From IMG/VR virus record IMGVR_UViG_3300032335_001346, positions 1 through 38,425 of that record: a stretch of DNA of 38,425 nucleotides. One strand, 5' to 3'. Shown one piece after another: positions 2-38,421 of this stretch. The stretch comes from a virus (taxonomy: Duplodnaviria > Caudoviricetes). A program made the position numbers and the translations under genes. The notes beneath the pieces were generated by a model that saw only the letters and a list, made by a program, of their open reading frames with translations, was not told the origin of the DNA and searched no databases. The first letter of the stretch is position 1. Each line of letters starts with the position of its first letter.

Positions 2-199
2 CCAGCTATAATTTTTTGGAATGTTAATGGAATAATTAAAAACATACCTGCAACAATTAATGATAATAATGTTGCTTTAGTATCTGGAGCATCTCCATCA
101 ATTTTAAAATCTGTTTTAAAAGGAAGAGTATTTCCTATTGAAACTTTATTGAATACAATAAATGTTGAAAGATACAAAATAATAGAAAACAAATTTTAA
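2..199 (+). CDS. C-terminal 65 aa (5'-truncated) of a DUF2828-family, Ro60/TROVE-related vWA-domain protein
   Basis: My translation of frame 2: PAIIFWNVNGIIKNIPATINDNNVALVSGASPSILKSVLKGRVFPIETLLNTINVERYKIIENKF*. The pattern P-x-I-x-FWN...P...VALVSG-x-SPS...P...L...ERY matches the DUF2828 C-terminus as I recall it. Absent from the ORF track because no start codon is in the window. Confidence 0.82.
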   Translation, partial: PAIIFWNVNGIIKNIPATINDNNVALVSGASPSILKSVLKGRVFPIETLLNTINVERYKIIENKF

Positions 200-209
200 A
201 TATTTAAAT

Positions 210-340
210 GGCTAGTGTTGTGGGTGAGTGGCTTAAATCACCTAAAGGGAGGTATTAGCCCTGTAAGTTGTCGGCAACAGTGCTCATCGCTACTACTAAG
301 ATTACGCTGTTCGCAGGTTCGAATCCTGCCAACACTAGCT
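210..340 (+). ncRNA. tRNA-like RNA with extended acceptor stem and enlarged central region, no encoded CCA
   Basis: GCTAGTGTTG (211-220) pairs with CAACACTAGC (330-339). Ser/Leu/Tyr-type D arm TGGGTGAGTGGCTTAAATCACC (221-242). Canonical T arm GCAGG-TTCGAAT-CCTGC (313-329). About 70 nt lie between the D and T arms with no canonical anticodon stem. Confidence 0.75.
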
Positions 341-350
341 TTATAAATAT

Positions 351-597
351 TTAACTCGGCACGGGTAAAGATGAGTGCAGAACTACGACTTGCATAATTG
401 CGAAAGCAATGAGTGAAATAACACTAAGTCAGGCTGATCAAGTGTAATGGCAAGCAACACGATCGGCGGCTTCTCAATAAGCGGCAGCAGTAAATTGAGG
501 CGGGCTTCTAGATTACCGCTTAGTAGCTAGAATATGAGTTAGTCTTTCTTGAACAAAAAGGCATCTCAAGACAGTTAGCCTTCTGTAAAAAGGCACT
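351..597 (+). ncRNA. Unclassified highly structured ncRNA
   Basis: GC-enriched non-coding stretch with consecutive stems: 387-392/425-430 enclosing an ATTGC-GAAA-GCAAT GNRA hairpin; 433-439/461-467; 472-478/494-500; 506-516/523-532; 547-552/566-571; 578-582/590-594. TAAGCGG (478-484) is complementary to CCGCTTA (516-522). Confidence 0.68.
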
Positions 598-38241: not shown

Positions 38242-38270
38242 TTGACAATTAATTTAACCAGTATTATCAT
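38242..38270 (+). promoter_or_regulatory. Strong sigma70-type promoter
   Basis: TTGACA (38242-38247), 17 nt, TATCAT (38265-38270); A-rich UP-like region upstream. Confidence 0.8.
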
Positions 38271-38305: not shown

Positions 38306-38421
38306 AATAGGCTAACAGCAAAAATTTTGCATTGGGAGCATCAGGGGAAGGTTAGAGTCCTTCAACCGCCTTTATTGGTGGTTAAGCTCTAGGATTATCG
38401 GAGCGGATTAAAATGCCTATT
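38306..38421 (+). ncRNA. Y-RNA-like (YrlA architecture) circularly permuted tRNA mimic
   Basis: Closing stem AATAGGC/GCCTATT; T arm GAAGG-TTAGAGT-CCTTC; loop-closed 7-bp acceptor AACCGCC-TTTATT-GGTGGTT; D arm GCTC...GAGC; ATC/GAT anticodon-stem stub. Confidence 0.75.

Follow-up and report, generated by a model that had tools for sequence, protein, structure and literature searches.

Does the GC-enriched interval at positions 351–597 of this phage genome encode a single structured RNA of a new kind, and what could such an RNA do for the phage? The window analysed here is the whole 38.4-kb record (38,425 nt), which is AT-rich (27% GC) and belongs to a podovirus-type phage with PHROG matches to terminase, portal, capsid, and tail tube. 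The record is present in freshwater and aquatic sequencing runs, among which one labelled as RNA is probably DNA and the RNA runs X19 and X20, where its share is small, provide no evidence. In contrast to the window, the 351–597 region has a GC content of 43%, and its plus strand contains no ORF longer than 30 codons. A preliminary description, made from the letters alone, had proposed one multi-stem RNA of about 245 nt with a closing stem and a kissing loop. Comparison with homologues indicates that the region is real and conserved but consists of several separately inherited modules (354–594) rather than one 245-nt unit, ordered in the window as module A (354–378), a core of ~117 nt (383–499), module D (500–532), module B2 (536–562), and module B (571–594). 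Compensating base changes point to a structured phage RNA on the plus strand that is absent from catalogues.

A contig identical to the window (L001) indicates a circular genome that was opened within a gene for a 461-aa DUF2828 protein. The order on the plus strand is a promoter, two handle RNAs, the DUF2828 plus DUF7788 gene, a tRNA-like gene (210–340), the 351–597 region, and small early genes. The sigma-70-type promoter at the operon head (TTGACA-17-TATCAT, 38242–38270, plus strand; L001 1557–1585) is an 11 of 12 match. The 3′ end of the DUF2828 plus DUF7788 gene lies at 2–199 (plus strand), and Pfam, AlphaFold (model pLDDT 83), and Foldseek (top 10 all Ro60) together assign its product a predicted Ro60 fold. 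The gene downstream of the RNA encodes a DUF6948 protein; directly 3′ of it, positions 1021–1314 encode a 97-aa protein with Gly-rich hexapeptide-like repeats (GNG/GHG/GYG).

Between the Ro60-fold gene and module A, at 196–354 (plus strand), the tRNA-like gene (D arm, odd anticodon arm, long variable arm, and T arm) is enclosed in a stem of ~22 bp that finishes on the first base of module A. The stem ends in two copies of the palindrome TAAATATTTA, and its outer arms are the palindromic spacer. Gene and stem together fold with a z-score of −2.98, and homologues of the gene are 86–88% identical. Both ARAGORN, which reported nothing in the window, and Rfam miss this gene, which has an unreadable anticodon arm and no CCA. 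Relatives in L210, L279, L284, and L304 retain the outer stem and swap the inside for 92 to 141 other letters. The palindromic spacer precedes module A in 19 of 66 distinct contexts, and an enclosing stem of −22 kcal/mol or lower stands directly before A in 6 of the 18 spacer cases listed, a count without shuffle control in which several of the other cases end before the stem is complete. The enclosing stem is likely a processing site that sets the 5′ end of the cassette; we take it to be of a size suited to RNase III, and the spacer presumably fits an RNase E site. The preliminary description had overlooked this gene within its long stem, together with the Ro60-like neighbour and the bracketing modules A and B.

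Base-paired modules of the 351–597 region

Folded as a whole, the region was no better than shuffled controls (z −0.91, 30 of 200 shuffles), which is expected because the chain is rich in pseudoknots, whereas the 385–470 sub-region folded better than its shuffles (z −2.67, 1 of 200); unusual folding stability is thus found in this part and not in the whole. The evidence that decides the reality of the RNA is comparative. Ten distinct homologues of the core, 74–98% identical, were aligned over module A and core with MAFFT, and in this unfitted alignment 91.5% of 388 cells pair and both partners differ in 12 of 40 pairs. None of 500 shuffles reached the observed pairing, although the relatedness of the homologues inflates this test, and slid controls gave 28–37%. 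The stems of the core are accordingly compensated among homologues, as had been anticipated for a genuine RNA.

The motifs named in the preliminary description were all recovered in place. Its three-way junction (387–430, plus strand) agrees with the homologues: P1 (387–391/426–430) and P3 (412–415/422–425, with a T-loop-like cap) are invariant in 10 of 10 distinct sequences and by themselves contribute no covariation evidence, and P2 (397–401/406–410, capped by a GAAA tetraloop) is compensated in two of them, L284 and L275, where a G-C pair becomes C-G. Much of the junction is uninformative because the homologues are related and it is hence invariant. The 44-nt junction stays nearly invariant while adjacent stems vary in compensated pairs, and letters in unpaired loops are kept. 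The hairpin at 433–467 (plus strand), which has an internal loop and the invariant loop GCAAGC (450–455), has stems compensated across homologues; the homologues likewise bear out the proposed stem 473–478/494–499 and hairpin 506–532. The GCAAGC loop possibly pairs with the junction strand 392–394. RNAalifold places an extra pairing of 389–394 with the invariant loop 449–454, within which 392–394/449–451 is compatible with P1; two pairs of this contact are invariant, and the third is standard in 7 of 10 sequences (1 compensated) and mismatched in three, including the window itself.

The core ends in pseudoknot C (469–499, plus strand), whose stem 1 (469–472/479–482) is 100% paired in 10 of 10 homologues with 2 of 4 pairs compensated, and whose stem 2 (473–478/494–499) changes on both sides in L257 and in L321, L284, and L275. 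Stem 1 occupies the loop that had been assigned to a kissing interaction (479–483/517–521), and that interaction fared poorly: 2 of its 6 pairs are lost in variant X7 and the second hairpin is absent from 8 of 10 core homologues, with L318 and L332 alone staying compatible (4 of 5 pairs). The proposed closing stem (352–357/536–541) is given up as well, its arms belonging to stem 1 of pseudoknot A and to module B2, and its 536–541 arm being absent from 8 of 10 core homologues. What stands of the multi-stem RNA first described is the junction and the hairpins; the single closed molecule gives way to independently shuffled modules, and four or five predicted local H-type pseudoknots appear better supported by the comparisons than the long-range pairs that they replace.

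Module A (354–378, plus strand) is predicted to be an H-type pseudoknot that opens the cassette, with stem 1 (354–357/363–366), a 1-nt loop, stem 2 (359–362/375–378), and the purine loop AAAGAUGA. Across 20 distinct variants 94% of cells are paired and 6 of 8 pairs are compensated (0 of 500 shuffles). Stem 1, which is the unbiased part of this test because the variants were picked on stem 2 and the loop, is 90% paired with 3 of 4 pairs compensated. All four stem-1 pairs are present in fixed register in 20 of 39 variants of a looser set and in none on the other strand, and pattern scans for module A returned 18 stretches, roughly half of them genuine. The plus-strand orientation first proposed is supported by G-U wobbles on that strand in modules A and B and by 0 A-like sites on the opposite strand. 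L037 (2540–3420, minus strand) has two copies of module A, a direct repeat of ~40 bp flanking an insert of ~800–850 bp that carries an oppositely oriented 157-aa gene, and this duplication suggests that module A is an insertion or recombination point.

Module D (500–532, plus strand) is optional and comprises the hairpin 506–532, whose loop (517–519) is likely paired with 500–502. Its evidence comes from 4 distinct variants only: X7 has compensated changes at 511/527 and 515/524 and a G-C to U-G change at 500/519, and L318 and L332 change 501/518 from C-G to U-A. Module B2 (536–562, plus strand) is a variant copy of pseudoknot B with the same layout, and it travels together with D in L318 and L332.

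The cassette is closed by module B (571–594, plus strand), a predicted minimal H-type pseudoknot with stem 1 (572–574/583–585), stem 2 (578–582/590–594), and an A-rich loop. Pattern scans found it in 115 metagenome stretches, 14 viral stretches, and 5 genome contigs; stem 2 was fixed by the search pattern, whereby the invariance of B is partly built in. The one pair of stem 1 that the pattern left free persists in all 105 distinct contexts (99 A-U, 3 G-C, 2 U-A, and 1 U-G, the last probably a chance match inside a gene), the next pair in 102 of 105, and the outer fourth pair in 57 of 105. The module stands alone among the clustered tRNA genes of L215, a 175-kb phage, and, identical or with a compensated pair, before genes in the marine contigs L266, L277, L299, and L319.

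Organization and exchange of the RNA cassettes

Modules A and B recur in more than 100 freshwater and marine phage contigs. Among 155 gathered loci 146 carry B, and 83 of these also have A on the same strand. The DNA from A to the next B comprises 54 distinct sequences, which were grouped by their 5′ domain into 20 families, two of them containing 76-codon ORFs; the present core, with 11 sequences, is one of the two largest. The array follows a grammar of A, payload, and B, with ~20 interchangeable payload families exchanged between unrelated phages. Besides the core, ~19 uncatalogued A-to-B payload families of 67–336 nt were seen (L213, L245, L314, L249, and others), several with many members and likely pseudoknots, and payload folding z-scores are mostly modest.

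Exchange can be followed around the core itself. Module A precedes it in 10 of 10 homologues and four different tails follow: D, B2, and B (window and L274), a long other domain (L037 and L308), an immediate B variant (L257), and a third tail (L304, L338, L321, L284, and L275). In L318 and L332 the 3′ half of the core (470–563) stands directly behind a B and lacks the junction, and several contigs aligned to 150–700 retain the ends (to ~380 and from ~572) with the middle replaced. The core is also found in G005, a 45-kb record with terminal repeats in which the DUF2828 gene was not found (control record positive) and a search without control returned no relative of the window's portal; therefore the cassettes move between unlike phages. 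The arrays sit behind a promoter and among tRNAs and tRNA-like genes; a promoter-like site precedes 43 of 70 loci, versus 17 of 70 on the other strand.

A first pattern scan for the core, covering 52 of 64 parts, contained 1 true homologue among 119 stretches, and further viral patterns gave 3 of 3 and 4 of 23 true matches but only one new contig. A covariance model of the core, built from 10 distinct sequences and run on 200 sources, produced 12 strong matches that were all known from BLAST; weaker matches were module A alone, and no more distant homologues were found in these sources.

Module B turned up in a Rickettsiales bin (two contigs) and a Fonsibacter bin (one contig), and a portal 46% identical to that of the window lies on a phage-only contig of the same Rickettsiales bin. 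Contig C16 of G001 (L394), in the Rickettsiales bin, carries a phage structural module whose genes are ordered as in the window, and L360 and L361 are array contigs. A host is only hinted at by these matches because the contigs concerned in the Rickettsiales bin are phage-only.

Proposed mechanism and alternative readings

The reading favoured here, held tentatively and at somewhat below even confidence, is that the region is a cassette of a shuffled phage small-RNA array, expressed in an early transcript, released by nucleases, protected at its ends by pseudoknots, and loaded with a decoy or ligand. Transcription would be early and polycistronic from the strong upstream promoter, and the cassette would be released by host cuts of the RNase III or RNase E type in the long stem and in the A/U-rich spacer before A. 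Modules A and B could then act as end-caps that block exonucleases, by analogy with viral pseudoknotted xrRNAs, which block RNase J1 in vitro (PMC5760640). An RNase J-like gene is present in one candidate host bin; counting against the end-cap step, A and B are far smaller than the ring-shaped xrRNAs. As short repeats, A and B would probably also serve as recombination points for cassette swapping, and repeat-mediated module shuffling of this type exists in PeSLs (PMC2839356). The most speculative step is the role of the payload, which may serve as ligand or decoy to a host defence protein that binds or cuts RNA. A decoy role is considered because the rapid turnover of many unrelated early-region folds resembles that of counter-defence genes and because a phage RNA decoy of a defence nuclease has a precedent in pseudo-ToxI (PMC3475682). 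It is the weakest step since no target was found, ToxN included, for which 3 incomplete candidate host bins were searched without a positive control. It is possible, albeit on the unlikely side, that the arrays would amount to an RNA anti-defence arsenal, in which a standard chassis carries at least 20 swapped payloads that each inhibit a different host immune protein, the core being one such inhibitor.

Modules A and B might instead be cis elements of the early transcript, serving as antiterminators, mRNA stabilizers, or translation enhancers, with the payload secondary. What keeps this role alive is that in 54 of 126 contexts B is followed by an A/U-rich leader and the start codon of a gene; in 3 of the 126 it lies near a promoter, and the window, like 4 of the 5 records searched, carries a single B. 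We nevertheless consider it rather unlikely, as B also precedes A (10 contexts), T-arm elements (8), and other RNA modules, the same leader occurs without B at most window genes, and the payloads maintain compensated structure of their own. An intrinsic terminator was flagged at B in the window, but the homologues and most contexts have no U-tract and this function was rejected.

That the modules are folded spacers or recombination hot spots, and the payload ballast under weak selection in a tRNA-like array, would fit the fast gain and loss of cassettes, the mostly modest folding scores, and the duplication of module A around the L037 insertion. Such a view is unlikely given the nearly invariant 44-nt junction beside compensated stem changes and the conserved letters in unpaired loops. 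The multi-stem junction and its invariant unpaired letters, together with the T-loop-like and GNRA loops and a possible nested pseudoknot, are features that Weinberg et al. treat as marks of biochemically demanding RNAs (PMC5737381), and the core could on that basis be a ribozyme or a small-molecule aptamer, for example a self-cleaving element that releases the cassette or a sponge for immune nucleotides. We regard this as distinctly doubtful, since no ribozyme or riboswitch family matched at E up to 10 (up to 2 for the homologue), the distribution is narrow, and no single type of gene lies downstream.

Improbable, too, is that the RNA is a Y-like partner of the adjacent Ro60-fold protein. The two share a predicted operon in which the protein gene ends 150 nt upstream, L278 and L279 carry a DUF2828 gene within the same kind of array, and Ro60 loci bear several RNAs, some of them missed by homology (PMC4201824). 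The window does contain an RNA with YrlA topology: two stem-UAACAGCAA handle RNAs (window 38306–38421 and L001 1621–1798) stand before the Ro60-fold gene, and the first of them, at 38306–38421 (plus strand), is YrlA-ordered, folding into a T arm, a closed acceptor hairpin, and a D arm with its handle. In L278 a homologue of this first RNA reaches E 2.3e-6 against Rfam YrlA, a match short of the gathering threshold. The handle motif WHCAGCAA occurs in 73 copies within 650 nt before DUF2828 genes, at 38 of 54 loci, with a density of 2.08 versus 0.17 per kb (12-fold) and 0 copies on the other strand. Features of YrlA RNAs, including the Ro-binding motif, are given in PMC4201824; unlike YrlA and YrlB, the RNA at 351–597 contains neither GNCGAA nor WHCAGCAA, has no T arm, acceptor hairpin, and D arm order (the D-loop-like GG at 449–450 is unconserved, and YrlA does not match), and is present without the protein. 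A search of 68 DUF2828 loci did not detect the core, and the Ro60-fold gene adjoins the RNA in the window but not in G005, the other core loci having short flanks. The Ro60-like neighbour is thus probably not a partner of the RNA, and the DUF2828 protein and its handle RNAs seem to form a further cassette of the same array, as in L278 and L279. Behind the DUF2828 gene of L007 (3480–3960), repeated handle hairpins alternate with tRNA-like genes of 110 nt whose anticodon arms are oversized. Phage Ro60 is described in PMC12135203, and a structural relative of the neighbour in phage Bas63 counters the ppl system (bioRxiv 2024.10.10.617714).

Least probable is a single closed 245-nt RNA, or one switching between long-range pairs and local pseudoknots: the window permits both pairings, L318 and L332 retain their kissing pairs with a U-A change, and the closing stem is unchanged in X7, but X7 breaks kissing pairs, most core homologues lack the partner arms, and the competing local stems are compensated.

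Relation to known RNAs

The expectation that no known family would match was confirmed: Rfam 15 yielded 0 matches above its gathering thresholds across the window (the lowest E-values being 0.11 outside the 351–597 region and 4.7 inside it), nothing over the RNA in the homologue L212, and only tRNAs in 20 array loci. A distant-mode search of GenBank phages returned one 31-nt chance match, and a sister array only short chance matches. No description of these modules was found in the open-access literature searched. Two known classes were rejected as candidates. No tmRNA (tRNA-like domain, tag frame, and pk1) was reported by ARAGORN, and B-like sequence is missing from the tmRNAs of two candidate host bins, so that for these bins a derivation of B from tmRNA pk1 was rejected as well. 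For the known self-cleaving ribozymes (hammerhead, HDV/theta, pistol, twister, and hatchet), Rfam returned no match in a search that admitted E up to 10; module B resembles the P1 and pseudoknot of the pistol fold but is too small to accommodate its remaining stems.

Several described systems share single features with the RNA. T4 RNAC and RNAD (species 1 and 2), GOLLD, and ROOL are likewise structured phage RNAs beside tRNA genes that are orphans as to function in the accounts of PMC9697503 and PMC5737381, but they are unitary and have no sequence or model match with the present RNA, which is a chain of swapped small modules. The type III antitoxins ToxI, CptI, and TenpI have an H-type pseudoknot of ~25 nt with an A-rich loop and flanks (PMC8860590, PMC12283969). 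Modules A and B also have such a pseudoknot with A-rich flanks, which is a generic feature; unlike the antitoxins, they have no Rfam match, are of two types, and enclose unrelated payloads. Their copies are single or spaced, not arrayed as near-identical tandem repeats before a ToxN, CptN, or TenpN gene, and the gene downstream encodes DUF6948. In the xrRNAs of plant and animal viruses a pseudoknot marks where a noncoding RNA begins (PMC5760640), as module A would here; A and B are much smaller and have no evident ring fold, and any exonuclease resistance is putative. PeSLs of T4-type phages are short repeats in variable early regions that enable recombinational module exchange, but as PMC2839356 presents them they are promoter-terminator units that shuffle protein genes, whereas here pseudoknots would shuffle RNA folds. 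The irregular tRNA polycistrons of PMC5389517 are tRNA-shaped, unlike this RNA. Our best guess is that it resembles a stable tRNA-cluster RNA with xrRNA-like caps and PeSL-like shuffling and that it belongs to none of these classes.

The analysis adds three or more new RNA motifs that can be curated, namely A, B, and the 117-nt core. Modules A and B, at ~25 nt, could be the smallest bacterial RNA end-protectors and may be useful for stabilizing RNA. Small RNAs of phage tRNA clusters have been without a function for decades, and RNA-based counter-defence is known in very few cases; the chassis of two pseudoknots with ~20 exchangeable payloads would offer a testable library that can be screened against defence systems.
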